A DNA stretch of 62,018 bases from Ignavibacteria bacterium (GCA_026415495.1 JAOAGZ010000003.1:1-62018); one strand, 5' to 3'; positions 7,014-49,437 are shown, numbered from the stretch's first letter. A program made the numbers and translations. Notes: generated by a model not told the origin, from the sequence alone.

Positions 7014-7670
7014 CTAATCTTGATTAGATTGAGCATAGAGTTTCGAAATTGAATCGTTCATATCTCGATGATAGATATAAGTTCTGTATTCAACTGATGC
7101 GACACAATAACCATTTTCAATTGTTCTCATAGCAAAATCCGCATCATCGCCGTACTTGATATTTCTGAAACCGCCAAGATTAACTGCAACATCCCTTTTC
7201 ACGAAAAAAGAGCCTCCGACATAGCATTCGTCAATATGTACCTGTTTTGAATTATCATAAAAATCAACAACATAAGGGTCGCCAATTATTTCAATACCAC
7301 CATAAAGAAGATCAACTTCAGGATGCTGTAAAAGAATGTTTCGCCTGAGTTCTAAATGATTGTCCTTATATTCATCATCGGAATCCAAAAAAGTGCAGTA
7401 AAGTCCGGAAGAAGAAAGAATTCCTACATTTCTCGAAAGTGGCAACCCTTTATTTTTATGAAACAGATAACGAATTCTTGAATCACTAAAATACTTTGAA
7501 CAAACATTAAAAGTATTGTCTGACGAACCATCATCAACTATGAGAAGCTCCCAATCCTGCTCCTTCTGATTAAGAACTGAAATTATTGCTCTATCTATTA
7601 TATGACCTCGATTATAAGCTGTAAGAATAATCGAAAAAAAAGGAATTCTATTATTATGATAAATATACAT
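7014..7670 (-). CDS. Glycosyltransferase family 2
   Basis: 218 aa with FSIILTAYNRG, VDDGSSDNT and DSDD motifs of the GT-A fold. Confidence 0.8.
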   Translation of the reverse strand: MYIYHNNRIPFFSIILTAYNRGHIIDRAIISVLNQKEQDWELLIVDDGSSDNTFNVCSKYFSDSRIRYLFHKNKGLPLSRNVGILSSSGLYCTFLDSDDEYKDNHLELRRNILLQHPEVDLLYGGIEIIGDPYVVDFYDNSKQVHIDECYVGGSFFVKRDVAVNLGGFRNIKYGDDADFAMRTIENGYCVASVEYRTYIYHRDMNDSISKLYAQSNQD

Positions 7671-9040
7671 TATCTACTAATAACAAATTTTTCGCTTAAA
7701 ATCTGGTTATCTGATTTTATCTGCATAAAATAAATTCCTGATGGAAAACCGTTTGCATTCCAATTAAATGAATTTTCTCCGGCGTTAAAATAGACATTTG
7801 GTAGTTGATATATCTCTTGCCCATACGAGTTAAATATCGTAATATTAACATTTTGTGCATCAGGCAAATAAATTCTAATGTTTAGTATGTCATTCGCAGG
7901 TTGTGGAGAAATTGATAAAATCTTAAAGTCAGAATGCCTATTATTATCAACGCTTGTTTTAAGGTATGTGGATTTGAATAATCCCTCGCCATAAACGCCT
8001 GCGAATATAATAAAACCAGCATCAGTTGTGTCCCAATTAGGTATCATAACTGTTCGAACTGATTTATTGGTAGGCAAACCATTGTTGAAAGCTTCAAAAT
8101 AATGTCCATAGATCGAAGAAACTAAAACTCCGGCATTCCCTGCAGCGGCAGCAACAAGGCGCGGATACCGTGGATGTTCTGCAAATTCAAAAATCTGATT
8201 GCCTGCACCAGTAAAATACTGCCAAGTTTTACCGGTATCTAAGCTTATGTATATTCCTTTTCCAATACTTGAACCATCAACTGTCAGTGAATCCACACCA
8301 CAAAGTACAATAGAAGGATCTATTGATGAAGGCAAAATTGAAAGCACACGTAATCCTTCCAAACCACTGCTTTCGCGGTGCCAAGATCTACCATAATCAT
8401 ATGATCTTAATACTCTCCCCTGAGATGATGCGTCTCCCGATAAAAAGAGTAAATTTGAAATTTTTGAAAAAGCAACTGAACGTGTTTCAACGCTCAAAGA
8501 GGACGAATTGCAAGTAATAAAATCATTATCCGAATAAACAAAGCCTTCACTTGTATTAATCGCGGCAGCAACGAAAAATTCATCTTGATTAATAATAGTT
8601 GAAGATACTCGATATAATTGATTGGAAGATTCGCATAATATATCTTCGCTCCAATTCTCTCCACGGTTTGTTGACAATAATATCCCGCCGCGGGTGAAAT
8701 GTCTGACTGCTACGAACCATTTATTGGGGTATCTTTTAGATTGATATATATCATATACCGATCGCTCATTTAACTGATATTTGGTAAAAGTTTTACCTGA
8801 ATCCATACTTTCCTGATAACCGTTTCCAATAAAAGGGAAATCGATATTCTTTTGCAACACATTAGTTGGGAAACCGCTTGAAGCAACTAATATTCTGTTC
8901 GGCTCATCAACAGGAGAAAAAATTTTGTTAATATAAGGATTGACCCCATCGATTTTTACCCAGTATTGGGCATACGATATTGAGGAAAATAGGAAAAGCA
9001 AAACAGCTACAAACATTAACTTTTTCATATTCAATTTCAA
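7670..9040 (-). CDS. BNR/Asp-box repeat beta-propeller protein with T9SS C-terminal sorting domain
   Basis: 456 aa with a signal peptide and Asp-boxes SMDSGKTF, STNRGENW, SYDYGRSW and SLDTGKTW. The C-terminal ..ISPQPANDILNIRIY..GIYFMQIKSDNQILSEKFVISR is T9SS-CTD-like. Confidence 0.7.
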   Translation of the reverse strand: MKLNMKKLMFVAVLLFLFSSISYAQYWVKIDGVNPYINKIFSPVDEPNRILVASSGFPTNVLQKNIDFPFIGNGYQESMDSGKTFTKYQLNERSVYDIYQSKRYPNKWFVAVRHFTRGGILLSTNRGENWSEDILCESSNQLYRVSSTIINQDEFFVAAAINTSEGFVYSDNDFITCNSSSLSVETRSVAFSKISNLLFLSGDASSQGRVLRSYDYGRSWHRESSGLEGLRVLSILPSSIDPSIVLCGVDSLTVDGSSIGKGIYISLDTGKTWQYFTGAGNQIFEFAEHPRYPRLVAAAAGNAGVLVSSIYGHYFEAFNNGLPTNKSVRTVMIPNWDTTDAGFIIFAGVYGEGLFKSTYLKTSVDNNRHSDFKILSISPQPANDILNIRIYLPDAQNVNITIFNSYGQEIYQLPNVYFNAGENSFNWNANGFPSGIYFMQIKSDNQILSEKFVISR

Positions 9041-16176: not shown

Positions 16177-16935
16177 TTATTGAGATAATTCTTTATTTTC
16201 TTTGTCATTGTTCGTTTCTTGTATGGATTCATTAGACAAAGTATGATCCAATACGTTTGACAAACTATCATTAGAAATTTCTGAGCTATCTGCTTGGCTT
16301 TCATGATTATGTTCAAAGTGCAGATGCCACCCATTTATCATTGACTTAAAATTGGAAGAAACTGTTTCGCCGTGCGTTGCAAGATAGATATGACCGATAA
16401 AGAATAAATTCAAAAAGAAACCAATTGTAATATGAAGCAACGCCATAGGCCAGACCCCACCCATTCCCATAATCTGTTCGGGAGCAAGTTCAGGAAACAT
16501 AAGTAACCACCCAGTAATGATAATACCCGGCACAGCCAAAAACATTATTAAAAAATAAGTTAGTCGTTGAAGTGGATTGAATTTATTTTCAGGAGTAGTC
16601 TCGAATGGATGTGGTTCACCTTTGAATACACCATAAAGATAATAACGCATTTGCTTAAGATACATTTCTTTTGCACCTCGTAATTGAGGTATATACTGTT
16701 TGTAGTTTCGAGTTTTAATATTAAAAAATAGATAATAAAGAAACACAACTGAAAGCAAAATACCACAAACATTATGAGTAACAATCGCATATTCAAATGG
16801 CATCAATAAAGAACTTGTATCTGAATATTGCATACTGACACCAGACAATATCAATAGAAAGAACAGAATTGCATTTATCCAATGCCAAAAACGTAACCAA
16901 CGTGGATACATATATACTTTGCGAACAGTACTCAT
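16177..16935 (-). CDS. Membrane b-type cytochrome, FdnI/HydC/PhsC family (PF01292-like)
   Basis: 252 aa with four or more hydrophobic helices and the N-terminal RWLRFWHWINA motif plus conserved His residues. Its start overlaps the 13-haem gene stop by 4 nt. It has a Ser/Asp/Glu-rich C-terminal tail. Confidence 0.8.
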   Translation of the reverse strand: MSTVRKVYMYPRWLRFWHWINAILFFLLILSGVSMQYSDTSSLLMPFEYAIVTHNVCGILLSVVFLYYLFFNIKTRNYKQYIPQLRGAKEMYLKQMRYYLYGVFKGEPHPFETTPENKFNPLQRLTYFLIMFLAVPGIIITGWLLMFPELAPEQIMGMGGVWPMALLHITIGFFLNLFFIGHIYLATHGETVSSNFKSMINGWHLHFEHNHESQADSSEISNDSLSNVLDHTLSNESIQETNNDKENKELSQ

Positions 16936-18404
16936 ACTTTTTTCTCCGCAATTTTTTTACGTTTTAAACTAAAATAAGCACGAAGAGAAGCGTGAATTAT
17001 AATACCTAATAAAGTGAGAACAAAAATTGCAATACTAACCAAATTTAAATATAGGTTTCTTGTTACACCAATAACATACGCATCGGAAAGAATAGTTCCA
17101 TTGATAAAACCATATTTCTCACGTGATAGCGATTTTTGATGACGATATAGTGTATTCATAAGCATTGAATTCATAGAATGACAAGTTTCGCAGCGCTTTA
17201 CAGTTTTCTCCGGTGGCAAAATATCGTGTGAACGATTAGGAGGTTCGATTGAAGAATGACAATCAATACAACGCACTCTATCCCAATGTGAGCTAATACG
17301 TGGCAACCAACGATGTGCTTTTTCAACAGTTGCAATACCATATTTGTTCATCATTGATTCGTCAGAGTGACAGGCAACACAATAGACCATTTTATTATTC
17401 ACAACAACATTAAATTTCATTCCTGATTTTGTGAAAACCGCACTTGGGATATCAGGAACGTGTTGGATATTATGTTCGCCGTGGCAATAGGTGCAATTCG
17501 GTGCATCTAAATTTCCACTCAAAAGAGATTTTCCGTGTACACTTTGAATATATTCAGTTGATACTTCACTATGGCAGGAATTGCATACATTATGAATATT
17601 AAAATGATTAATTCGAGACTCTGGGTGTGAAGCCTTTTGAAGGTTATGAGTACCATGGCAATCCACGCACATAGCAGCTTTTGTATTTCCAGCTAATAAT
17701 GCTGACCCGTGAACGCTCTTTTCATAATTAATCAATGAGTTAGCATACTGGCTCGAAATGAAAGTAATATGTAAATGGCAGGATAAACATAATTTTTCTT
17801 GATTTAATTTTCTTTGTAATTCTGAAATTTGATTACCTTTTGTGATTGGTTGCTTATGACAATAAATACAAGTAGGTGCATTGGGATTGTGAGCAACATA
17901 TTGAATTGAGTGTTCAGATTGTAGATGCTCTTTTTTTACATCTGAATGGCATTTACCACAAAATTCAGTTGAATTGGTGAAATGAAGTGGAGAATTTGGG
18001 TTACCAGGACTTTGAATATTGTGAGAACCATGACAACCTACGCAATTAATATCTGGACCGCCTTTACTCCCAGTAGCTTTTGCCATAGATGGGTGCCAAG
18101 GATGTTTACCTATTAGATTTGAGTGACAATTAGCACAATTGACACTCAAATCACCTTCTTTGTGAGGTATATCATCCGCTTTGAAACCAACATGACAATT
18201 AATACATAGCATTTTTGAATGTACAGAACGAGCAAGCTCAAATTTTCGCACATGAAGTTTCACTTTTCGACCATTTTTTTCCATATAAATATCCGGATCA
18301 CTATGGCAGCTAAGGCAATCATCATTAGATTGTGAATTCGTGTTTTGTACACTAAAAGATACTATGTAGAGGAAAGCAAATAAAATAGGTAAATATTTAA
18401 ACAT
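16932..18404 (-). CDS. Multihaem c-type cytochrome (13 CXXCH) with C-terminal membrane anchor
   Basis: 490 aa with a signal peptide. I counted 13 CXXCH motifs: CLSCH, CINCH, CANCH, CVGCH, CGKCH, CIYCH, CLSCH, CVDCH, CNSCH, CTYCH, CVACH, CIDCH and CETCH. The C-terminal hydrophobic helix is LVSIAIFVLTLLGIIIHA. Confidence 0.85.
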   Translation of the reverse strand: MFKYLPILFAFLYIVSFSVQNTNSQSNDDCLSCHSDPDIYMEKNGRKVKLHVRKFELARSVHSKMLCINCHVGFKADDIPHKEGDLSVNCANCHSNLIGKHPWHPSMAKATGSKGGPDINCVGCHGSHNIQSPGNPNSPLHFTNSTEFCGKCHSDVKKEHLQSEHSIQYVAHNPNAPTCIYCHKQPITKGNQISELQRKLNQEKLCLSCHLHITFISSQYANSLINYEKSVHGSALLAGNTKAAMCVDCHGTHNLQKASHPESRINHFNIHNVCNSCHSEVSTEYIQSVHGKSLLSGNLDAPNCTYCHGEHNIQHVPDIPSAVFTKSGMKFNVVVNNKMVYCVACHSDESMMNKYGIATVEKAHRWLPRISSHWDRVRCIDCHSSIEPPNRSHDILPPEKTVKRCETCHSMNSMLMNTLYRHQKSLSREKYGFINGTILSDAYVIGVTRNLYLNLVSIAIFVLTLLGIIIHASLRAYFSLKRKKIAEKKV

Positions 18405-18438
18405 CTTATATTATCTCTTGTTCAACATTTTGAAAAAA

Positions 18439-18464
18439 GTAGGTAGCAATTGCTTGCTACCTAC
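18439..18464 (-). terminator. Rho-independent terminator after the monohaem cytochrome c gene
   Basis: GTAGGTAGCAA-(4 nt)-TTGCTACCTAC is a perfect 11-bp stem followed on the minus strand by TTTTTTC. Confidence 0.65.
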
Positions 18465-18474
18465 ACAGAAAATA

Positions 18475-18822
18475 TTATTCACTTTTAAGAGTAGTAAGCC
18501 ATTCAGATAATATTCTTAATTCTTCGTCACCACCTTTAAACTGTGCGGGATGCTTTTTGCCTTTTAAATCAGTTTCTTTTTTCAGATACTTTGCAAAAAA
18601 TTCAGCATCTCCTTCAACTGATGCATTTGATAAATCAATTGCACCTGATTTTTTCTTAGAAGCAATACCAAGTGAATTTACAGAATGGCACATATCGCAT
18701 TTCTGTTCTGTAAAAATTGTTTTACCATCTTTTGCTTCTTGTGCATTTACAGAAACATTAAATGATGCAACAGCGATAAATGCGATTGCTGCCAATGCTA
18801 AGAATAAATGTTTGATTTTCAT
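18475..18822 (-). CDS. Periplasmic monohaem class-I-like cytochrome c
   Basis: 115 aa with a signal peptide and a single CDMCH motif. Confidence 0.8.
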   Translation of the reverse strand: MKIKHLFLALAAIAFIAVASFNVSVNAQEAKDGKTIFTEQKCDMCHSVNSLGIASKKKSGAIDLSNASVEGDAEFFAKYLKKETDLKGKKHPAQFKGGDEELRILSEWLTTLKSE

Positions 18823-18896
18823 ATGACCTCCTTTTGAGAAAAAGTTATTTATATAACCTAACGAATTAACGAATTAATAATAAATTAGTTTCATTT

Positions 18897-19415
18897 TTAT
18901 ATTGCAATTGTTAGAGTATTTTCAATTGGATCGAATACAGAATTATACTTTAATAAAGAAGGGACATCACCAGAAGCACTTCCTTTATCTTTTAGCGAAC
19001 CATCAGAAGAATAAAATTTTGCGCTATGTGCTGGACAAAAAATATCTCCTCCCGGTGAAGATGGCAAAACAACTTGTGCACCAGCATGTCTGCAAATTGA
19101 ATCAAGAACAACAAATTTATTTTGTTCAATTCTGAAAATGATTAATGGATTACCATTATTAACTGGTTTGTTGTTTTTATCGCGAACAATGACCATTATC
19201 ATTCCACCTACACTGCTTAAAGTTGGATAGTCAGAAATTTTCAGAACTGGATAATTTTCTGGTTTTGGTTGCTCTGGTGGCGCAACTGTCTCACCATCAT
19301 TGTCGCAAGCCGCAATAATTGAACTTAAAACACAACCGCACAAACTTATTCCCGCAATTTTTGCCGATTTTATCAAAAATTCTCTTCTATCATTATTCAT
19401 TCCCATTGCTGTCAC
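18897..19415 (-). CDS. Tat-exported Rieske [2Fe-2S] lipoprotein
   Basis: 172 aa with twin-arginine RREFLIK, the lipobox IIAAC, and Rieske ligands CRHAG..(17 aa)..CPAHSAKF. Confidence 0.85.
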   Translation of the reverse strand: MTAMGMNNDRREFLIKSAKIAGISLCGCVLSSIIAACDNDGETVAPPEQPKPENYPVLKISDYPTLSSVGGMIMVIVRDKNNKPVNNGNPLIIFRIEQNKFVVLDSICRHAGAQVVLPSSPGGDIFCPAHSAKFYSSDGSLKDKGSASGDVPSLLKYNSVFDPIENTLTIAI

Positions 19416-19418
19416 CTC

Positions 19419-20714
19419 CTAATAGAAAATATGTAATTGAAAAGCGAATTGAGAATTATACTTATCAACGTGGTCACGGTCAAAAATTTTGTATTCAGGA
19501 ATCAACGCTATGTAAGGTAAAAGGAATATTTTAGCTCCTAATGTATATCTATTAGCGTGATATTTTGGATTGCCTGAAGTTTTCATTTCTGTATTGCCAC
19601 GTTCAAAACGAAGATAAGCATAAGCAGGTTCAATTACCTGATAATTAAATTCAACAGTAAAATTATTAGTTATTCTTCGCTGCGACAATTCTGTTCTCAT
19701 ATATTCTGTCATTACTGCAAATTTCCCGAGAACACCAAAATGAAAGAAAATACTCGAAGTTGTTAGATAATGATTCCCAAAATATAATCCATCGTCCATT
19801 TTAAGCGTGCTATTGAAGAAATGGGTAGCACCAAGAAAAGAAGTCAGTCCAGTTCCAAAGTCAGGTGGATGCAAAGTAACTTTTGCGAGTCCTGATAACG
19901 TATTGTCTTTTACAAAGCCATTAGTCATTTCTGACAAATTTTTTGAATCGAATACACCTAACGACACATCTGCCCATTCAAAAGGCTCATAATCAAGTAT
20001 AGCTCCTAATTCAAAGTAATCGCAAGGAATTGTTGGAGGCGTCAGAGTTTTTGTAACTACTTGACGAGTCATAACTGTATGATCGTCCCAGTCTGTTCCA
20101 ATTGTTGCTTGCACCATTCCAATACGCAAAGATGGAAGTTTTTCAAATGGATGAAGAATAATACTAGCAGTATATGGAGTCTGACCGGGATAACGTTTTT
20201 TATTCTCAATTTCGTAAGCTAAATTGTAAGAGCCTTCTAAAATAACTCCGTCAATTGGTGTAATTGTTAAATAAGGGGTCAATATCATCAACATATTATC
20301 TCTTTTGGTTCCATAAGGATCAGGATAGTGAATGGTATCCTTAACATTTGGGTCAAATAAGTTGTCGTAAACCACAATTTTATTTTTTGTAGTAGGCCAC
20401 CGAGCAGATTGATAACGGAAATCAAGTCCGAACATAACATTATCAGTAAAAAGAGTATTGCTTTCCCTTATTGCATCGTACACAGGATTAATTCCAAGAT
20501 CTTCGGGTTTAATTAAGGCGATATCGCTGAACGACATCCAACCGGACATATTGCGTTGCAACCCCATATTAGGTGCAACGTGGCAATTTTGACATTTTGT
20601 GCCGAACGACTGCAATATAGAATATTGCGGTCGGGCATTCGCTACATCAAATATAATAATCAACAATAAAATTGTTATCACTAATCTGTTCATAAACATC
20701 TCTTTAAATTGCAC
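19419..20714 (-). CDS. Cyc2-like fused monohaem cytochrome / outer-membrane beta-barrel
   Basis: 431 aa with signal peptide MNRLVITILLLIIIFDVANA. A single CQNCH lies about 14 residues into the mature protein. The remaining ~370 aa have an alternating amphipathic beta-strand character and end ..FAFQLHIFY, an aromatic terminus typical of OMPs. The true start is probably the ATG at 20691-20693; the track starts at a GTG. Confidence 0.55.
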   Translation of the reverse strand: MQFKEMFMNRLVITILLLIIIFDVANARPQYSILQSFGTKCQNCHVAPNMGLQRNMSGWMSFSDIALIKPEDLGINPVYDAIRESNTLFTDNVMFGLDFRYQSARWPTTKNKIVVYDNLFDPNVKDTIHYPDPYGTKRDNMLMILTPYLTITPIDGVILEGSYNLAYEIENKKRYPGQTPYTASIILHPFEKLPSLRIGMVQATIGTDWDDHTVMTRQVVTKTLTPPTIPCDYFELGAILDYEPFEWADVSLGVFDSKNLSEMTNGFVKDNTLSGLAKVTLHPPDFGTGLTSFLGATHFFNSTLKMDDGLYFGNHYLTTSSIFFHFGVLGKFAVMTEYMRTELSQRRITNNFTVEFNYQVIEPAYAYLRFERGNTEMKTSGNPKYHANRYTLGAKIFLLPYIALIPEYKIFDRDHVDKYNSQFAFQLHIFY

Positions 20715-20779
20715 AAAATGTAGAATGAAAAATAATTTAAAATATAACCAAGATTAAAATAAGAACTTATAAAACTAAA

Positions 20780-20801
20780 GGCTGCAAAATACTTTGCAGC
20801 C
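20780..20801 (-). terminator. Hairpin terminator after the hexahaem lipoprotein gene
   Basis: GGCTGCAAA-(4 nt)-TTTGCAGCC is a perfect 9-bp stem followed on the minus strand by TTTAGTTTT. Confidence 0.55.
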
Positions 20802-20819
20802 CCGAAATATAATGAGACA

Positions 20820-21917
20820 CTATTTCTTCAAATAATCTAAACCGTTTTTCAAAATTGCAAGTGTCAATGCAGGATTATGTGCACCATTTGAGCGATCTTT
20901 TGCAATATACAAATAATTCAATAACACATCACCATCGGAACGAGGAATAACTCTTCTTTGTCCAGCAGCTTCGAGTTTTGCATATTCAGCAAGAACATTA
21001 TAGTCTGCATCACCAGGGTTACCAGCAGTAGCGATCAATAATCCTTTGTCAATAAGTAATTGACGGTATTCAGCAAGTAAAGTTTTAATTTCATTAGTTT
21101 TAGTTGTAGGAATACCTGATGGATGGCAGCTCTTGCAAGATTCAATAGTACTCATTTGAGCAACAGTCATCTTGAATGAGTGTCCACCAGCAGTAGGTGC
21201 AGTTGGATTGCTACCCATATGGCAGCTAACGCATCCTTTTGCAAGAACACTGTGAGGATTGCTTGTTGGATATGTTTCTGGACCATCAATCAAATTCAAG
21301 CCTTTGCCAGCAAATACATTTGCTACTGTACCATAGTGAGGACCAAATCTCGAATACATAGCAGTTGAGCTTGCAGCTGTTAATGTATCGAAGTCAGGAC
21401 TATTTCTCGTATAAGAACGAGCTTGATGGCAAGTAGCGCAGAGATTACCTGTTTTGAAATCAACATTTCCATCAGCAGCTGAACCTTTGTAAATCAGAGT
21501 AAATGGTTCTGTAACTCTCAAAGTATAGTCAGTTGAGTCAAGATTTTTGTGAATACTATGACAAGTTTTGCAGTCAATAGAAGTGATTCCAGTCTGCCCC
21601 CAAGTTTTTGAGGCGGTCATTTTACGAAAGCCATCTCCATTGTGGCAATCACCACAACCAGCACGACCTGCAGTGTAAGTGTAAGTTTCGCCTGTTTTAT
21701 GTAGCGAATAGTTGAATTGAGCAAATGCAAGATTTGTTGCAGTGGCATTATCAGAATGGCAAACTGCACAAGCAACGCTTGCATCTTTACCATCTTTGCC
21801 GTCTTTGCCATCCTTGCCAGCTGGACCTTGTGGACCTGCGGGTCCTTCTGGACCTTCGCAAGCAGTCATAAATAATACAAATGCTACTACTGAAAGAATA
21901 GAAAATAATTTTTTCAT
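20820..21917 (-). CDS. Hexahaem c-type cytochrome lipoprotein with collagen-like (GXY)8 N-terminal tether
   Basis: 365 aa with the lipobox LFMTAC followed directly by EGPEGPAGPQGPAGKDGKDGKDGKD. It has six CXXCH motifs: CAVCH, CGDCH, CKTCH, CATCH, CVSCH and CKSCH. Confidence 0.85.
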   Translation of the reverse strand: MKKLFSILSVVAFVLFMTACEGPEGPAGPQGPAGKDGKDGKDGKDASVACAVCHSDNATATNLAFAQFNYSLHKTGETYTYTAGRAGCGDCHNGDGFRKMTASKTWGQTGITSIDCKTCHSIHKNLDSTDYTLRVTEPFTLIYKGSAADGNVDFKTGNLCATCHQARSYTRNSPDFDTLTAASSTAMYSRFGPHYGTVANVFAGKGLNLIDGPETYPTSNPHSVLAKGCVSCHMGSNPTAPTAGGHSFKMTVAQMSTIESCKSCHPSGIPTTKTNEIKTLLAEYRQLLIDKGLLIATAGNPGDADYNVLAEYAKLEAAGQRRVIPRSDGDVLLNYLYIAKDRSNGAHNPALTLAILKNGLDYLKK

Positions 21918-22249
21918 AATAACTCCATAATAGTGAATGGAAAATAACTTCTTGTTTCAAATATAAATATTTTTAATTTATTAAACAAAATAAATATTAA
22001 AAAAAAATTAATCAATTATTCAATCGCTACTACTAAACATTATACATATCGATATGTTTTTTAGACTACTTAATATGATACATATTTTAACAATTAAATT
22101 AATTAGAAATTAATTATTTTTCATCGATTTTAATTTAATCTAAAAGGAAATAAGTATATTTTATTTAATCTTTGGATATGAAACAATTTTTTCTAATTCT
22201 CGTAAAGATATTTAATGAATCGTTATTTTATAATAAAAAGGAAATACAT

Positions 22250-23227
22250 ATGAGAGGAAAACTACTATTACTTACCGTATTATCAATGTGCATTTACACA
22301 AATGGCTTTGCTTTTCAAACAGAGAATTTGCCGAGTAATGACACAACAAATGTTTTGGAAGAGAACGACTTTTTTGAGGATGATAATGGAAAAAATCCAA
22401 TCATAGACATCTTCACTTCTGCATTAAGATTTAAACAATATAAACCATCGAAAAAACTAAGATTAAATTTCTACAATAATTCTCCAACGATAAATGTAGG
22501 TTATGGAATAAGCAATCATTTTTATGAAAGAAATTCATTTACATCGAAAATTAATAATAATGGAATAATTGACATCAAACTTGGTTCAACTGATTTACAC
22601 AGAGTTACTTCAAATGTAGTTGAATATGATAATGATTATTTATCATTTAGTTCTGCTGAAAACAAATTAAATTACAAGGAAAACGATAATAGTAATAATT
22701 ATATGGACTTACGACATATTAAGCTTGGTTTGAATAATGCTGACGGTTATGGTTGGAATTTTGGAGGAAATTCACATTTAGTGCTATACCATAGTTCGGG
22801 AATTAATTGGAATAGTTTATCATTTGATAACAATATTGCTGACAGTGTTTCAATTAATTCAACTAAAATTTTTGGCAAACAATTAAGATATGGTCGCGGT
22901 TTTGCTGGTGGGATAAAGTTATTTATCATTAACGGTGTTGCAATTTCTGCTGAATATGAACAAACTATGACTTTTCCACGTCATTTGTTCTGGAAAGATT
23001 TCGGATCGTTTATTATTGAAACAATAGCTCAGGAATTATCCAACAACTTCGTAGATGAAGTACTTGATAGTTCCCCAAGTTTTGCACCAGTCATACATTT
23101 TTTGCTCAAAAATGGTATCTCTTATGGATTTTATGAACTTTACAAAGACAAGATGAATTGGCCATTCAAAACAGTTCCACCACTAATGAACAAAACTTAC
23201 AAAATTGGAATAGATTTTATTTTATAA
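22250..23227 (+). CDS. Hypothetical secreted protein
   Basis: I moved the start to the ATG at 22250, which is preceded by AAGGAAA and gives the signal peptide MRGKLLLLTVLSMCIYTNGFA. I recognise no family. Confidence 0.5.
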   Translation: MRGKLLLLTVLSMCIYTNGFAFQTENLPSNDTTNVLEENDFFEDDNGKNPIIDIFTSALRFKQYKPSKKLRLNFYNNSPTINVGYGISNHFYERNSFTSKINNNGIIDIKLGSTDLHRVTSNVVEYDNDYLSFSSAENKLNYKENDNSNNYMDLRHIKLGLNNADGYGWNFGGNSHLVLYHSSGINWNSLSFDNNIADSVSINSTKIFGKQLRYGRGFAGGIKLFIINGVAISAEYEQTMTFPRHLFWKDFGSFIIETIAQELSNNFVDEVLDSSPSFAPVIHFLLKNGISYGFYELYKDKMNWPFKTVPPLMNKTYKIGIDFIL

Positions 23228-44310: not shown

Positions 44311-45192
44311 TTAATAGTTCTCGTCATATAGTGGTAGAGCATAAATAAAATTAATTCTAAAGCCAATATTTGAATTATAGATTTTTTGAGATTCAATAAA
44401 CTTTGTGAAAAAATAAACATATCTAAGCCCGATACCTGTTGAAAAATTTTTAGACCATTCAGTTTGTAAAAATTTATATGCATTCCAATTAATATTACAA
44501 TTCAAATTAACTCCGACAAAGAACTTGTTTAAACCGTCAAAATTGTTGTAGGTTTTACTTTGAAAGTCTCGTCCATTATCATATGTATAACCTTTGGGTT
44601 CGACAATTGAGAGAGTTTGTTTATAGTTATGATCTACAACATAACCAAAAATTGGACCAATAGAAAAATAGTATTGTGGAGCAAAATAATTTATAAAATA
44701 ATTTAATGAATGGTGAGGAGAACCTAACTCAATATTGAAACTCCAATAAATTGATGTATACTCAATTTGAATTTTATTTTTCTCTACAAGATTTTTTATT
44801 TCGCCATTATAATATACTTTTCGATTCGGTTCAATATTTGACCCAATCAAACTGTTATTATTTACACTTATATTACTCGACAAGTTATAGGATAAAGAGT
44901 CGAATAATGGGAAGTTTTTAATATTATGGAAAAAAGCTTTAGCATAAATTTCAAAACTTGTTCCATAATCAACATCATTAAAGTCTAATGGATTGCAGCA
45001 AATATTGTTTTTATTTACTGGTTCATATTTGCCGGTGGTAATATTAATGTTTGGAACAAATCCCAAACCTATATAAACTCTTGGTGTTGTTTTTTCACTA
45101 TTTGTATTAATAGATGAATATAACCGAGTGTGAAAAATAAAGAGTATTATGATTAAGGAAATTATAGGTTGCCATTTTTTCATATCGATCAT
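44311..45192 (-). CDS. Hypothetical outer-membrane beta-barrel-like protein
   Basis: 293 aa with a signal-like N-terminus, an alternating Tyr/Asn/Gly-rich strand pattern and a C-terminal ..LPLYDENY. It abuts the upstream gene (the two share nt 45192). Confidence 0.45.
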   Translation of the reverse strand: MIDMKKWQPIISLIIILFIFHTRLYSSINTNSEKTTPRVYIGLGFVPNINITTGKYEPVNKNNICCNPLDFNDVDYGTSFEIYAKAFFHNIKNFPLFDSLSYNLSSNISVNNNSLIGSNIEPNRKVYYNGEIKNLVEKNKIQIEYTSIYWSFNIELGSPHHSLNYFINYFAPQYYFSIGPIFGYVVDHNYKQTLSIVEPKGYTYDNGRDFQSKTYNNFDGLNKFFVGVNLNCNINWNAYKFLQTEWSKNFSTGIGLRYVYFFTKFIESQKIYNSNIGFRINFIYALPLYDENY

Positions 45193-47561
45193 TACCTCTT
45201 TATAAATTTGTGAAAACTTAAATTAATACCATCACTTATTTTTAATAGGTAAACCCCAGGTAGTAAATTAGCAACATTTAGAGTGTATTCATTAATTCCG
45301 CTATTAACATTATTATTATTTGTTTTTATTAGTGGTACACCACGATAATCAATGATTTCGAAGTTTAATTTCGATTCATATTTTGATAATATGTTAAATG
45401 ATATTATTGTTTCACTTGGGTTTGGATAAAAATCAATAATACTAAAATAATTATCGAATATTAAACTGTTTGTCAGTGGACATTTGGACTGAGCTGATAT
45501 TTTAATAGGCTTTATTTCAAATTCCTTCATATATCTACTTTTATTACCTATTAATAGTTTGCCTGATAAAGTTGATTTATTGTCATAACCAGCCAAAACA
45601 ATTCCACTAATATTAATTAATAACGAGTCAGTAAAAGCAATTTTGTCTGAATAACCCTCTAACTCTATTAATCCCTTATCGATCTTACGAACACTAAATC
45701 TATCAAATTTGCCTTTATTGTTTTCTAAGATGTTTTCTAAAAGCGGGAAAAACAATTTATAATCATAATTAATATAAAATGCAAATTTATTAGCATATAG
45801 AAAATCAATATCATCATACATTATATCTAAGTTTATCGTGTCATTATAAAATGCATCGGTTAATTCTGTATTACCTGTTGAACTACTAAATTTTATATAT
45901 TCTTTATATTTTCTGGGTAATCTTGCATCACCATCGCAAAAACTTGAAGGACCTGGGTCACATAGATATAAATGCCAATCTCCTTCACCGGCATTTATCG
46001 CAAATTCATAAATTGTGTGTTCATAGTCAATTTTTGGTGATTTCCCGAAGCCGTATTTACCGTCCTCTACAATCGAAGTATCATTGCTTACATCAACTCC
46101 ATTTTTATATACTATAGGCTTCTTTTTATTGTCGTTATAAACATAAATCCCCCAGTGCTCTTTTCCATTTGCTGTAAATAATTCAAATAAATTATAGCAG
46201 TTTTGTTTGTCTGGTTCTTCGTACCCAATTTTCCAATCATTTAATATATATAATTTACCAGAGCAATATTCAGCATAAAGATTTGAAAACATACCTTCTG
46301 CAGGTTCAGAATTCATCCACTCATCCAAGTAACCAGGTTCATTAGTGAACTTACCATCAATTTTGTGGTTATTTATACAGATATTTTTTATTCTCTTGTT
46401 GTCTTTGCTGGAGTAAATCGTTAATGTATCTTTTTTTAATGTACCTCCAAATGAATATGGTTCAGTTAACAAACCAGCTACACCGGATAACGGAATATAT
46501 CGTTTAGATATCTGCATTTCTGAGCCATTTTTATCTATGCTACCGACTATTATATTTGGTTCGGATATTGTACCGTATCCATCTTCATCACAATATAATG
46601 TAACACTTGGTTTAACTTCTATCATCCCTACTTCGTCTCTAAACAATCGCATTGTAAAAAGACCACCACTTGCTTTTACACCAAATTCCCACATTGTATG
46701 ATTAGAGTCGACAAGTAATGATTTGGCGTTACCGTATCTTCCTCCTAATACATAGTTAGTATCATTTGTAACGTCTTTACCGTTTAACGTTACTTTGATA
46801 CCTTTCGTAATTGAGTTGTATATTCTAATCTTCCAATTTTCAACTCCTCCAGCAGTTGAAAATTCGAATTCATTGAAACAAGTAAGTGAATCATAATTGC
46901 CATTTCCTAATTTCCAATCATTCATTATGTACAGTATTTTTGTTGTTGGGCAGTAATCCAAATATAGATTGGAAAATGTTCCTATTAACGGTGTTATTGT
47001 GGACCATTCCTTTGTTTTTCCATCACCAACTGAATCAGTAAAAATCCCATCAATTTTATGAAATTTATCACAATCTTCTATTTTGTTATTTGAGCTACCT
47101 CCCGGTTTGTTCTTCACTACTTCTCCTTTTGGAACAGGTGGCTTACCTTTGGAATAATCAACTTCTTTACCAAGATTGGTTCTTGGATCAGGATCATAAG
47201 GATTTATAGTATCAGACTTATTTGGCTTATTTTTTACTGAAAAATAAACTTCAGCACAATCTTCATATAATTTTTCATAAATAAAAATTTTGTGCCGCTC
47301 CTCTGTTAAGTAACTAGGCAGCCTGAAAGTCAATATTCTATCTCTTAACTCAAAAACAAATATTTGAATTGTGTCGTCGATAAATATATTGATATTTTCT
47401 GTCAATGGATAATTATTTATATGCTTAAGAACGATTCTTTCACCTGCATACAACGAATTTTCATTTTCAATTCTCAACTTGATTAAACACTCTGATTTTA
47501 GCACTTGCAAACTTGCAAACAATAAGATAATTACACTTGTTTTAATGAAATTGGAGAGCAT
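45192..47561 (-). CDS. Large secreted protein with a tandemly duplicated uncharacterised ~145-aa domain and a T9SS C-terminal sorting domain
   Basis: 789 aa with a signal peptide. Repeats at aa ~164-310 and ~395-536 share HKIDGxFT, EW, FSNLYxxYC, LYIxNDWKxG, CxNxFE, NGxDVxNDT and HTxxEF. The C-terminal IDFYPNPSETIISFNI..GVYLLKISDGINLSFHKFIKR is a T9SS CTD. Confidence 0.7.
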   Translation of the reverse strand: MLSNFIKTSVIILLFASLQVLKSECLIKLRIENENSLYAGERIVLKHINNYPLTENINIFIDDTIQIFVFELRDRILTFRLPSYLTEERHKIFIYEKLYEDCAEVYFSVKNKPNKSDTINPYDPDPRTNLGKEVDYSKGKPPVPKGEVVKNKPGGSSNNKIEDCDKFHKIDGIFTDSVGDGKTKEWSTITPLIGTFSNLYLDYCPTTKILYIMNDWKLGNGNYDSLTCFNEFEFSTAGGVENWKIRIYNSITKGIKVTLNGKDVTNDTNYVLGGRYGNAKSLLVDSNHTMWEFGVKASGGLFTMRLFRDEVGMIEVKPSVTLYCDEDGYGTISEPNIIVGSIDKNGSEMQISKRYIPLSGVAGLLTEPYSFGGTLKKDTLTIYSSKDNKRIKNICINNHKIDGKFTNEPGYLDEWMNSEPAEGMFSNLYAEYCSGKLYILNDWKIGYEEPDKQNCYNLFELFTANGKEHWGIYVYNDNKKKPIVYKNGVDVSNDTSIVEDGKYGFGKSPKIDYEHTIYEFAINAGEGDWHLYLCDPGPSSFCDGDARLPRKYKEYIKFSSSTGNTELTDAFYNDTINLDIMYDDIDFLYANKFAFYINYDYKLFFPLLENILENNKGKFDRFSVRKIDKGLIELEGYSDKIAFTDSLLINISGIVLAGYDNKSTLSGKLLIGNKSRYMKEFEIKPIKISAQSKCPLTNSLIFDNYFSIIDFYPNPSETIISFNILSKYESKLNFEIIDYRGVPLIKTNNNNVNSGINEYTLNVANLLPGVYLLKISDGINLSFHKFIKR

Positions 47562-47565
47562 AATA

Positions 47566-49437
47566 TCACCTTAAAATTATTACTTTTTTTGTAGTAAACT
47601 GTTCGTTAATAAATAGCGTAAGGAAATATGTACCTGATTGCAAATTATTAATATCTATAGATTGATAGTATTTACCGGGCATTTCATGATAATCGGAATA
47701 CTCTTTTATTATATTACCGTTTATATCAGTCAATTTTATATTAATACGAGATTGTTTTGTTATTGAATATTCAAAATGAGTAATGTTTCGTGTTGGATTT
47801 GGATAAACATTAACGTCATCTAACGACTTAATTTCTAAGTTCTCTGGTTGAACAGATGTTATCTTGTAACAACTATCACAATTAAATGAAATTACTTTTG
47901 TAAGAAGTAATGTATCGGATGGCGAGAATAATAACCTTATATATTTTTGGGTTCCAACTGCGCAAGGATCAATGTTAAAATAGATAACACAACAAGCGTT
48001 ATCATCAATAGAATTTTTGAAATTAGAATATATTGAATCTAAACCTTTCTTATTATTAATGTAATTTACTTTACCAAAAGTGCTTCTGGCTATCGTTTCT
48101 ATTTGTCTTATACCGGTGCTGTCATTTTTACCGAATCCCAATGCTACTATATAAATTGGAATATTATTTGCTCTATTTTTAATTTCGTTTAATACCTCAT
48201 TGTTTAATTGAATGCTGTCACTTGGATATTTATCAGAAAAAGGAACAGTATTTGCACCATCGCTTAACACCAATAGATGTCTTACTCTTTGCTTGCTTTG
48301 ATTTATCTTGTCCAATGCAGCGATGATAGCTTTGAACAAAGCTGTTTTACCTGATAATGTGTCAAGTTCATCGATTGCTTTTGTCAATTTAGTTTTATCT
48401 TTTGTCCAGTCTTGATTTAGAATTACTTCTGTAGCAAAACTCATTAAAAATGTTGAGTCTAATTCTGTTAAACTTGATACAAATTTTTTTAATGCTGTCT
48501 TAGTTGCATCTATTCTTTTTGTTAAATCACCCGGCTGAATGTTTAAATCCATACTGGGTGAAACATCTACCAACAACCCAGTAGACATACCTTCTGTATT
48601 GTCACAATTTATTTCTACATCACATTTAAACACACCATTCTCTATTACACTTATTTGAGATGGGTTAATACTTTTTAAAATATTTTTGAAGCCTGTTGGA
48701 TTATTAGTATCCTGGACAAATATCTTTGACCATACTCTTAACCCTGCTAAAACGTTATTAGAATCGCATATTGCTTCTACGTTGCATATGTCAACTACAG
48801 GTTGATTCTCTGCCTTCTCTTCAATTTTGATTTTTAAAAAACCACAATTATCCTCATATCTTGGTATGATGCTTTCTAATAATACATTATAATTGGAATC
48901 TAATATCTGAAATTTGAAGGGTTCCCCTGTCCCTTTTTTCTCAATTGAATATGTATGATTTAACCTGTTAATCCCAACATTTGGCAACGGTTCACCGTTA
49001 ATTCTAAAGCCTGTATATCTTCTTAAACTTAGACTAAATTCTGGAACAGCAATTTCTCTCGGAGGTACTTCAAATAATTGAGGATCTCCAACCCATTTTG
49101 GCATAACAAAAAATGGGAATTTTACTCCAAATAATACTACTGTATCTGGTGGCCATCTCCAGTTGTCCATTTCAGCTTTAGGCACATCATATACATAAGC
49201 AGCATCTACCCCATAGCATTCATTACTGCCTTCCCGCGGCCACATCGAATAAGTTCCTTCCACTGTAATTATGTATGTCTTCGATGTATCAGTAGTTTGA
49301 GATAAGACAATACTTCCATTTGATGGTAATTGAAGATATTGGATTTTTGATGCCTGAATGTTATAAGAAAATAATATTAAAGTGAAACAAAAAAATAAAA
49401 TTCGAAACATAATTTCCCCCGTGGTTTGAAAAATCAT
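47566..49437 (-). CDS. von Willebrand factor A domain protein with T9SS C-terminal sorting domain
   Basis: 623 aa with a vWA MIDAS motif (LLVDVSPSM ... SGKTA ... LVLSDGAN). The C-terminal VNVYPNPTRNITHFEYSI..SGTYFLTLFINEQFTTKKVIILR is a T9SS CTD. The likely true start is the ATG at 49408-49410 (MFRILFFCFTLILF). Confidence 0.75.
   Translation of the reverse strand: MIFQTTGEIMFRILFFCFTLILFSYNIQASKIQYLQLPSNGSIVLSQTTDTSKTYIITVEGTYSMWPREGSNECYGVDAAYVYDVPKAEMDNWRWPPDTVVLFGVKFPFFVMPKWVGDPQLFEVPPREIAVPEFSLSLRRYTGFRINGEPLPNVGINRLNHTYSIEKKGTGEPFKFQILDSNYNVLLESIIPRYEDNCGFLKIKIEEKAENQPVVDICNVEAICDSNNVLAGLRVWSKIFVQDTNNPTGFKNILKSINPSQISVIENGVFKCDVEINCDNTEGMSTGLLVDVSPSMDLNIQPGDLTKRIDATKTALKKFVSSLTELDSTFLMSFATEVILNQDWTKDKTKLTKAIDELDTLSGKTALFKAIIAALDKINQSKQRVRHLLVLSDGANTVPFSDKYPSDSIQLNNEVLNEIKNRANNIPIYIVALGFGKNDSTGIRQIETIARSTFGKVNYINNKKGLDSIYSNFKNSIDDNACCVIYFNIDPCAVGTQKYIRLLFSPSDTLLLTKVISFNCDSCYKITSVQPENLEIKSLDDVNVYPNPTRNITHFEYSITKQSRINIKLTDINGNIIKEYSDYHEMPGKYYQSIDINNLQSGTYFLTLFINEQFTTKKVIILR

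Follow-up and report, generated by a model that had tools for sequence, protein, structure and literature searches.

A conserved six-gene cluster from an Ignavibacteria bacterium is a candidate trans-envelope electron conduit built around a Rieske-coupled haem-porin

We analysed a 62,018-nucleotide stretch of DNA from an Ignavibacteria bacterium (GCA_026415495.1 JAOAGZ010000003.1:1-62018), referred to here as the window, which carries six consecutive genes for redox proteins on its minus strand. We call these genes g1 to g6. They encode a hexahaem lipoprotein, a porin-like protein with a single c-type haem motif, a Rieske iron-sulfur lipoprotein, a small cytochrome c, a 13-haem cytochrome and a membrane cytochrome b. 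We found that the cluster is a real, conserved module with a constant core of g1, g2, a Rieske protein or small cytochrome, and g4. The pair g5/g6 is a frequent but non-obligatory neighbour of the g1-g4 core. Altogether, the six genes probably encode one conserved trans-envelope electron conduit. More tentatively, we propose that g2 represents a cross-phylum family of Rieske-coupled haem-porins that is sister to Cyc2, and that in Kapabacteria and Ignavibacteria g1 and g5/g6 extend this family into a complete conduit from the quinone pool to the outer membrane. Full-text literature searches, homolog locus tags included, returned no description of the six-gene cluster or of a Rieske-coupled Cyc2-like family.

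Layout of the cluster

An earlier note on this DNA had described six consecutive minus-strand redox genes at 16177-21917, and all six open reading frames (ORFs) are present there. Together with the terminators between them they are, in the direction of transcription:

g1, 20820-21917, minus strand: 365 aa, hexahaem c-type lipoprotein, lipobox Cys20, six CXXCH
Terminator g1/g2, 20778-20803, minus strand: hairpin and T-run, 11-bp stem with 5 GC pairs
g2, 19419-20714, minus strand: 431 aa, signal peptide, one CXXCH at C41, predicted barrel
g3, 18897-19415, minus strand: twin-arginine translocation (Tat) motif DRREFL, lipobox Cys37, CxH...CxxH, Rieske domain PF00355
g4, 18475-18822, minus strand: small monohaem cytochrome c, one CXXCH, PF00034
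Terminator g4/g5, 18439-18464, minus strand: hairpin, 11-bp stem, then TTTTTT
g5, 16932-18404, minus strand: 13 CXXCH, C-terminal transmembrane (TM) helix at ~452-470
g6, 16177-16935, minus strand: cytochrome b of FdnI/HydC/PhsC type, PF01292

The note's description of each product was borne out. We recovered the lipobox and six motifs of its g1 lipoprotein, the N-terminal CXXCH of g2 followed by a modelled 16-18-strand barrel, and the Tat motif, lipobox Cys37 and PF00355 match of the Rieske protein. The monohaem g4 and the C-terminally anchored g5 have the expected motif counts of 1 and 13, and g6 matches PF01292 and overlaps g5 by a measured 4 nt. Counted from g1 to g6, the CXXCH motifs number 6, 1, 0, 1, 13 and 0. 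All 21 CXXCH found in window ORFs of at least 100 aa therefore sit in g1, g2, g4 and g5, and the remaining window ORFs (16,925 aa) contain none. The start of g2 is likely the ATG at 20693, and only 3 nt separate g2 from g3.

From two terminators the note had divided the cluster into three transcription units. Both hairpins were found, at 20803-20778 and 18464-18439 as read on the minus strand, one in the 105-nt gap between g1 and g2 and the other in the 70-nt gap between g4 and g5. The regional terminator total (5, against a shuffled expectation of 3.8 +/- 1.9) is not in excess, so support for these two comes from their position and strength. The cluster has three intergenic gaps of at least 70 nt, and both terminators fall in such gaps. 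The surroundings in the window consist of DinB, HPr/PtsI, ClpX, aconitase, isocitrate dehydrogenase and type IX secretion cargo proteins. No molybdopterin, NiFe, sirohaem, copper or other catalytic respiratory enzyme is encoded among these flanking genes, which agrees with the note.

Conservation of gene order

The nearest homologs of g2 (79-92% identity) belong to Candidatus Kapabacteria and "Ignavibacteria" metagenome-assembled genomes (MAGs). A scan with one genome per species returned 43 species-level Kapabacteria/Ignavibacteria loci; these were compared with the six proteins by tblastn, and gene order was counted in those with sufficient flanking DNA. The order and strand of g1-g6 are the same in almost all 43 loci, with g2 identity as low as ~35%. 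The g1 gene lies directly upstream of g2 in 37 of 42 loci. The slot after g2 is occupied by a Rieske protein in 31/40 and by a ~120-aa monohaem lipoprotein in 8/40, and g4 follows in 35 of 37, with one to three tandem copies each. Downstream of this core, g5 and g6 are both present in 23 of 29 judgeable loci. Co-localisation in relatives, which the note had named as a check on its proposal, was thus confirmed as far as order goes. Its six-gene unit stands in part: the order is conserved, but adjacency of g5/g6 is frequent rather than universal, and the constant part is g1, g2, the carrier and g4.

Two side observations concern individual loci. In a Lac Pavin MAG (L037, 4476-13409) the cluster has undergone tandem amplification, with three g1-type lipoprotein cytochromes and two g2-type haem-porins. 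Several cluster-bearing MAG records (L005, L012, L014, L015, L024, L027 and others) are titled Hyphomicrobiales, Desulfobulbaceae, Chloroflexota or Chloroherpeton thalassium. The proteins that these clusters encode nevertheless group with those of Kapabacteria/Ignavibacteria, and titles such as "uncultured Hyphomicrobiales" may be unreliable.

The haem-porin g2 and its relation to Cyc2

The g2 precursor has a signal peptide cleaved after ANA, followed by the motif RPQYSILQSFGTKCQNCH and then by a predicted 16-18-strand beta-barrel. Residues C41, C44 and H45 are invariant in 29 homologs, which speaks against the alternative named in the note, an ordinary porin with an unconserved CXXCH. The family shares the mature N-terminus RPQYSILQSFGTKCxxCH, and throughout the family, other phyla included, the CXXCH and the 18-residue motif around it vary little or not at all. 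An AlphaFold2 model built from the 29 homologs (mean predicted local distance difference test score, pLDDT, 79) places 16-18 strands in a barrel that begins at about residue 93. In a Foldseek search of this model against the PDB, OprP (2o4v, E=1.1e-10) ranked first and OprO (4rjw) third.

OprP and OprO are also the structural templates that Keffer et al. reported for Cyc2 (PMC8406198). By the published definition, a Cyc2 protein has a signal peptide and one CXXCH, with AXPXFAR[Q/K][T/Y] upstream of this motif and PXL after it, and a porin body that has 16 strands and is 365 aa or longer (PMC8406198). The architectural elements of this definition are all found in g2: a signal peptide, a single N-terminal CXXCH, a length of 431 aa and an OprP/OprO-like predicted barrel. 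The sequence motifs agree less well. Upstream of the haem motif, g2 keeps the alanine, the proline and the aromatic residue but has lost A-R-[Q/K]-[T/Y], and its spacer is two residues longer than in Cyc2. Downstream, where Cyc2 has PXL four residues after CXXCH, g2 reads CQNCH-VAPNMGL. The post-haem consensus is CH.N.QGGG.R in the g2 family versus CH...P.L in canonical Cyc2.

A sister subfamily stands closer to canonical Cyc2. Its motif, LPRFALQTGxxCxxCH, carries PRFAL in the canonical Cyc2 register, and it has P(-10), F(-8), A/S(-7) and G(-3) in common with canonical Cyc2. For comparison we assembled 81 full-length, motif-defined Cyc2 sequences from metagenome contigs. A hidden Markov model of this set scored the window g2 at 7.2 bits and a member of the sister subfamily at 33.7 bits. 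In hhalign, the g2 family matched canonical Cyc2 with 86% probability and the sister subfamily with 100%; the sister subfamily in turn matched canonical Cyc2 with 96.6% (E=5.6e-10, 322 columns, haem motif included). A reversed-sequence control gave 1%. As in Cyc2 itself, it appears to be the short cytochrome region that carries the homology signal. We conclude that g2 is best regarded as a remote, motif-divergent relative of Cyc2, one not established as Cyc2 sensu stricto.

An exhaustive profile search collected at least 369 clusters of the g2 family at 50% identity. Every cluster that we looked up is "hypothetical" or unnamed, and g2 matches nothing in Pfam or NCBIfam. A word-indexed search with distant members reached no named Cyc2 and no known iron oxidiser.

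The Rieske partner of the barrel

The g3 product matches the Rieske family PF00355 with E=3.5e-9 and 36.9 bits (cutoff 20.3). All 34 homologs compared keep its RR-x-F motif, the lipobox Cys37 and the cluster-binding pairs C108-x-H110 and C127-x-x-H130 unchanged. The additional disulfide-type cysteine pair (CxHxxC/CxCH), typical of high-potential Rieske centres, occurs in many or most g3 relatives and has been lost in the clade of the window.

Is the Rieske protein a local acquisition or an old partner of the barrel? Distant g2 relatives, in Myxococcota-type and other MAGs, have an adjacent Tat-signal Rieske gene in 5 of 6 loci, and usually the Rieske and barrel genes share a unit with genes for YceI and a small TM protein. 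No multihaem or cytochrome b gene lies beside the distant relatives at the loci examined. Around canonical Cyc2, a lipoprotein-type Rieske is absent from all 81 control loci. Four of the 81 have any Rieske ORF within 1.5 kb, and all four are of the TM-anchored bc-complex type. Since the Rieske gene recurs at distant relatives and not at canonical Cyc2, the Rieske-barrel pair is a deep, family-specific core.

By its sequence features g3 is a Tat-exported lipoprotein, and we read it as a periplasmic electron carrier. The presence of a monohaem lipoprotein in the Rieske slot of some loci points to a carrier role rather than to part of a catalytic site. A bc1-like complex of g3, g5 and g6 was considered and rejected: the Rieske slot is replaceable, g4 and a terminator intervene, and g6 is not a bc-type b subunit.

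Individual loci add detail on these partners. The Myxococcota-type MAG loci L167-L169, L171 and L172 carry the unit as a YceI-like protein, a ~100-aa single-TM protein, the Tat-Rieske and the haem-porin. L169:7189-8004 encodes a fusion of the Rieske with a His/Met class I cytochrome c, and L167:9638-10486 encodes two Rieske domains, an internal duplication. The bc-type Rieske genes near canonical Cyc2 at L068, L132 and L134 lie ~300-400 bp away and are unlike g3. The ~120-aa substitute with one CXXCH occurs at L013, L021-L023, L025, L026, L034 and L038 (e.g. L038:9254-9625). It has a conserved C-terminal AW[IV]NKGAPNN, and in L025 and L026 its haem motif is CNCH instead of CXXCH.

The lipoprotein g1 and the small cytochrome g4

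All six CXXCH motifs of g1 are invariant in 25 homologs, as are H73, H123, H194, H222, H246 and H347. Six motifs with six further histidines mean that all g1 haems can be bis-His. In Pfam, g1 matches multihaem families as well as the C-terminal portion of Cytochrom_C552; a single-sequence structure model (pLDDT 35) was uninformative. We regard g1 as a probable outer-membrane-associated partner of the barrel. The possibility that it is a hidden catalytic subunit of NrfA type was rejected, because six CXXCH and six histidines leave no open haem.

Behind its lipobox cysteine, g1 has a Gly-X-Y run of 8 collagen-like triplets (window 21783-21854, residues 22-45). Such triplets, 4 to 15 in number, follow the lipobox cysteine in every g1 homolog (L001-L042 and L164). 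It may serve as an extended stalk, or help g1 to form trimers that would match a trimeric porin.

In g4, C42, C45, H46 and H91 are invariant among 52 homologs and there is no conserved methionine. The invariant H91 and the missing methionine suggest His/His ligation, and g4 is probably a periplasmic cytochrome c with a His/His-ligated haem.

The inner-membrane module g5/g6

The 13 CXXCH motifs of g5 are kept in 27/28 homologs, and its TM helix has a conserved H471 and R475. More than 120 homologs at 43% identity or above are found in Kapabacteria, Ignavibacteria and Bacteroidota, and the Pfam matches of g5 are to multihaem families. The g6 product matches PF01292 strongly (E=1.6e-28, 100.1 bits against a gathering cutoff of 30.1). 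Among NCBIfam equivalogs it comes closest to PhsC (175.4 of 204), followed by HydC (67.5 of 121.5) and FdnI (50.4 of 115.85), all below cutoff. It has four TM helices, with His18, His54, His168 and His182 present in at least 95% of 24 homologs. The haem-ligand histidines of FdnI (1kqf) are residues 18, 57, 155 and 169, and the spacing of 14 residues between His168 and His182 is that of FdnI helix 4. These features indicate that g6 is a four-helix dihaem cytochrome b and a likely quinone-interacting subunit. In architecture, the pair g5/g6 resembles FdnH/FdnI with a 13-haem wire in place of the iron-sulfur subunit. PDB-chain sequence searches with g1, g5 and g6 gave marginal matches (HAO, 0.049; NrfB; FdnI, 0.046).

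The note had asked whether the 13-haem/cytochrome b pair always accompanies a known reductase elsewhere, and in the other contexts sampled it does not. No reductase lies beside the g5/g6 homologs in L164 or beside a second pair of g5 and a long g6 (L165/L166). In L164 the g1 paralog shares 32% identity with g1 and has the same lipobox and Gly-X-Y stalk, and the long g6 homolog is 50% identical in the b domain. Because L164 combines paralogs of g1 and g5/g6 with another barrel and with MtrC-domain cytochromes, these families appear to be reusable outer- and inner-membrane conduit modules.

The g6 of the window is the short form, with the b domain only. In 13 of 23 loci g6 is instead ~730 aa long and has six extra CXXCH. 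In this long form the N-terminal b domain is joined by additional TM segments and, at the C-terminus, by a hexahaem (NapC/NirT-like) domain. The long form is found at L007, L009, L018, L024, L027-L033, L035, L039, L041 and L164:10356-12461. Besides its g1-like lipoprotein and g5-like cytochrome, the paralogous cluster L164:4585-13850 encodes a DUF6029 barrel, multihaem cytochromes with MtrC domains and a b-multihaem fusion. The DUF6029 barrel was considered as a relative of g2 and rejected as unrelated.

Discussion

How might these six proteins work together? In the outer membrane, the g2 porin would carry one c-haem on its N-terminal peptide, as Cyc2 does, and would work with the stalked hexahaem g1. 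In the periplasm, the Rieske protein g3 and the cytochrome g4 would relay electrons to or from the barrel haem. At the inner membrane, the 13-haem wire g5 and the dihaem cytochrome b g6 would exchange electrons with menaquinone. The earlier note had read the cluster as a conduit linking the quinone pool to an extracellular or outer-membrane electron donor or acceptor, a reading that draws support from anatomy and synteny: the parts and their cofactor-binding residues, the predicted barrel fold, the gene order and the Rieske-barrel pairing. The protein contacts that such a path would need, the placement of g1, the substrate and the direction of flow are what we infer from them.

Which way would the electrons run? 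We lean slightly towards uptake of Fe(II)-derived electrons. Sequence does not settle the direction, and the conduit may well be reversible. For uptake, electrons from soluble or extracellular Fe(II) would pass to the g2 haem, then to the Rieske protein and cytochrome c, and on to terminal oxidases or denitrification enzymes, with g5/g6 as a link to the quinone pool. Uptake is favoured by the nature of the barrel's deep partner, a Rieske protein that in one case is joined to a His/Met cytochrome c. It is also favoured by precedent, since all characterised fused cytochrome-porins oxidise Fe(II) (PMC8406198, PMC7029218). In an Fe(II) oxidiser, a b561-dihaem c fusion and two small cytochromes c next to an mto operon have been proposed as a quinone link (PMC5566968).

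Several findings weigh against a single, inward-running, Cyc2-like conduit. The pair g5/g6 is not in the neighbourhood in 6 of the 29 loci, and the two terminators divide the cluster into three units. In the g2 model, pLDDT falls below 50 at residues 23-62, the haem region, so that the geometry of a haem plug is not confidently placed. Instead of the AXPXFAR[Q/K][T/Y] of Cyc2, g2 has A-R-P-Q-Y-S-I-L-Q and five more residues before the cysteine, and barrels compared with canonical Cyc2 after removal of the haem region give just 7-10% probability. With regard to inward flow, FdnI-type cytochromes b reduce quinone on the cytoplasmic side and thereby build proton motive force; Fe(II) electrons enter at ~+0.2 V, and menaquinone reduction through such a cytochrome would therefore be uphill. 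Moreover, PhsC, the best match of g6, is a quinol-oxidising anchor, and this match and the apparently bis-His haems of g1 and g4 fit outward flow better.

The same architecture could thus run outward. Here g6 and g5 would oxidise menaquinol and pass electrons through g4 and g3 to the g2 haem and a surface-located g1, which would deliver them to extracellular Fe(III), Mn(IV), humics or an anode. We consider both this route and these acceptors for g1 unlikely, although they have more in their favour than any other alternative. Besides the PhsC match, the FdnI-type haem ligands of g6 and the bis-His haems, paralogs of g1 and g5/g6 accompany MtrC-domain cytochromes in L164. CbcL-type modules, which pair a multihaem c with a HydC/FdnI b, are proposed quinol oxidases of extracellular electron transfer in Geobacter (PMC6295460), and Fe(III) reducers and anode colonisers occur among Ignavibacteria (PMC7399161). 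What keeps us from preferring outward flow is that the fused cytochrome-porins characterised so far are all Fe(II) oxidases (PMC8406198), that a Rieske partner mostly with the high-potential motif, and once fused to a His/Met cytochrome, would be a poor low-potential relay, and that the route requires surface exposure of g1, which is putative.

It is improbable that the cluster instead holds two or three independent systems side by side, with g5/g6 and g4 acting as an ordinary quinol:cytochrome c oxidoreductase that supplies terminal oxidases, and g1-g3 as a separate unit of the outer membrane and periplasm. The strength of the two terminators and the loci with no nearby g5/g6 would fit such a division, as would the larger size of the g5 family (1761 matches at E <= 0.001 among 8000 candidates scored, versus 369 g2 clusters), its occurrence in other contexts and the missing cytochrome b module at distant g2 relatives. 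Yet order and strand persist in 23/29 loci at g2 identities down to ~35%, and where g5/g6 occur elsewhere they again adjoin outer-membrane barrel and cytochrome modules. Least probable by far is that the CXXCH of g2 is incidental and the protein serves for ordinary diffusion or for the uptake of haem or metal, its neighbours serving unrelated periplasmic respiration: the barrel alone has generic porin similarity and no Pfam or NCBIfam family claims g2, but the 18-residue haem motif is (near-)invariant across family and phyla and a redox partner is always adjacent to the gene.

Returning to the Cyc2-like conduit, we asked how far known systems resemble it. As a whole, the locus matches none of Cyc2, the Geobacter porin-cytochrome complex, CbcL/MtoC, FdnHI/PhsC or PioABC. 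The note's phrase "unusual parts list" holds for the whole, but less so for the parts, since g2 is remotely related to Cyc2 and g5/g6 copy FdnH/FdnI. Like g2, the Cyc2 proteins (A. ferrooxidans Cyc2, Mariprofundus Cyc2PV-1 and Leptospirillum Cyt572) have a signal peptide, a CXXCH ~13 residues from the mature N-terminus, the register A-x-P-x-[F/Y]-[A/S]...G-x-x-C-x-x-C-H and a 16-strand-type porin of more than 365 aa modelled on OprP/OprO. Unlike g2, with its PQYSILQ and longer spacer, they have PXFAR[Q/K][T/Y] and PXL, and canonical Cyc2 is adjoined by neither a Tat-lipoprotein Rieske nor a hexahaem lipoprotein (0/81 control loci).

The Geobacter porin-cytochrome type (OmbB-OmaB-OmcB, reported in Ignavibacteria too) also combines a barrel with a multihaem lipoprotein and no catalytic enzyme, and both it and this locus are proposed to move electrons across the outer membrane. 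In contrast to the Geobacter type, the g2 barrel is smaller (~16 strands) and itself bears the periplasm-side haem in place of a distinct octahaem protein, the lipoprotein binds 6 haems where that of Geobacter binds 12, and a Rieske protein belongs to the unit. PioABC of Rhodopseudomonas palustris similarly joins an outer-membrane conduit to a Tat-exported iron-sulfur periplasmic carrier, but its carrier is a high-potential iron-sulfur protein rather than a Rieske [2Fe-2S] lipoprotein, and its conduit is a decahaem/26-strand pair rather than a fused monohaem porin. The note had set the layout apart from MtrCAB, PioAB and MtoAB, and we agree: those systems place a decahaem MtrA-type cytochrome in a 26-strand barrel, and this locus has no decahaem protein and a barrel of ~16 strands with an OprP-like fold.

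At the inner membrane, CbcL, MtoC and MtrH, like g5/g6, unite a multihaem c with a HydC/FdnI dihaem b beside outer-membrane conduits and have no catalytic subunit. The likeness to CbcL is one of description; what was seen in common is Pfam PF01292 and multihaem families. The three are single c-b polypeptides with a six-TM b, whereas g5 has one TM helix, g6 has four, and the two are separate ORFs in all loci. CbcL has its c domain first, whereas the long form of g6 starts with the b domain and ends with the extra hexahaem domain. The FdnH/FdnI and PhsB/PhsC pairs share with g5/g6 a four-TM b and, encoded immediately before it, a partner that has one C-terminal TM helix; where FdnH is a 4x[4Fe-4S] protein, the partner here is a 13-haem cytochrome, and there is no molybdoenzyme.

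Why would such a conduit matter? Cyc2 is the main metagenomic marker for iron oxidation, and its published definition demands the PXFAR motif. The locus points to a motif-divergent sister family of Cyc2 that has a different, apparently obligatory partner, a Rieske lipoprotein, and that here would be wired to a multihaem lipoprotein and a quinone module. If our proposal is true, envelope electron conduits would include a third architectural class in addition to the Mtr/Pio and Geobacter porin-cytochrome types. Widespread heterotrophs of the Fibrobacterota-Chlorobiota-Bacteroidota (FCB) group in groundwater, lakes and reactors would then gain a metabolism linked to iron or electrodes, one that current marker-gene screens overlook or label wrongly. 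A functional conduit would enlarge the design space of outer-membrane electron conduits and provide a testable iron or electrode redox route for Kapabacteria and Ignavibacteria, which are abundant in aquifers, ferruginous lakes and bioreactors. Surveys with FeGenie have reported both iron oxidation and iron reduction genes in Ignavibacteriales MAGs, at survey level and with the genes not named (PMC8478452, PMC13594681). A functional conduit would account for such calls of both oxidation and reduction in Kapabacteria/Ignavibacteria. The cluster, at six genes with a four-gene core, is small enough for heterologous expression.

Other features of the window

Divergent from g1 lies a 351-aa ORF (22172-23227, plus strand) with a signal-like N-terminus and no Pfam or NCBIfam match. 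Its position is kept only in the closest relatives (L001, L002 and L004). Three window proteins, encoded at 7670-9040, 45192-47561 and 47566-49437 (all minus strand), have type IX secretion C-terminal sorting domains, which is consistent with a host from the Bacteroidota-related FCB group.

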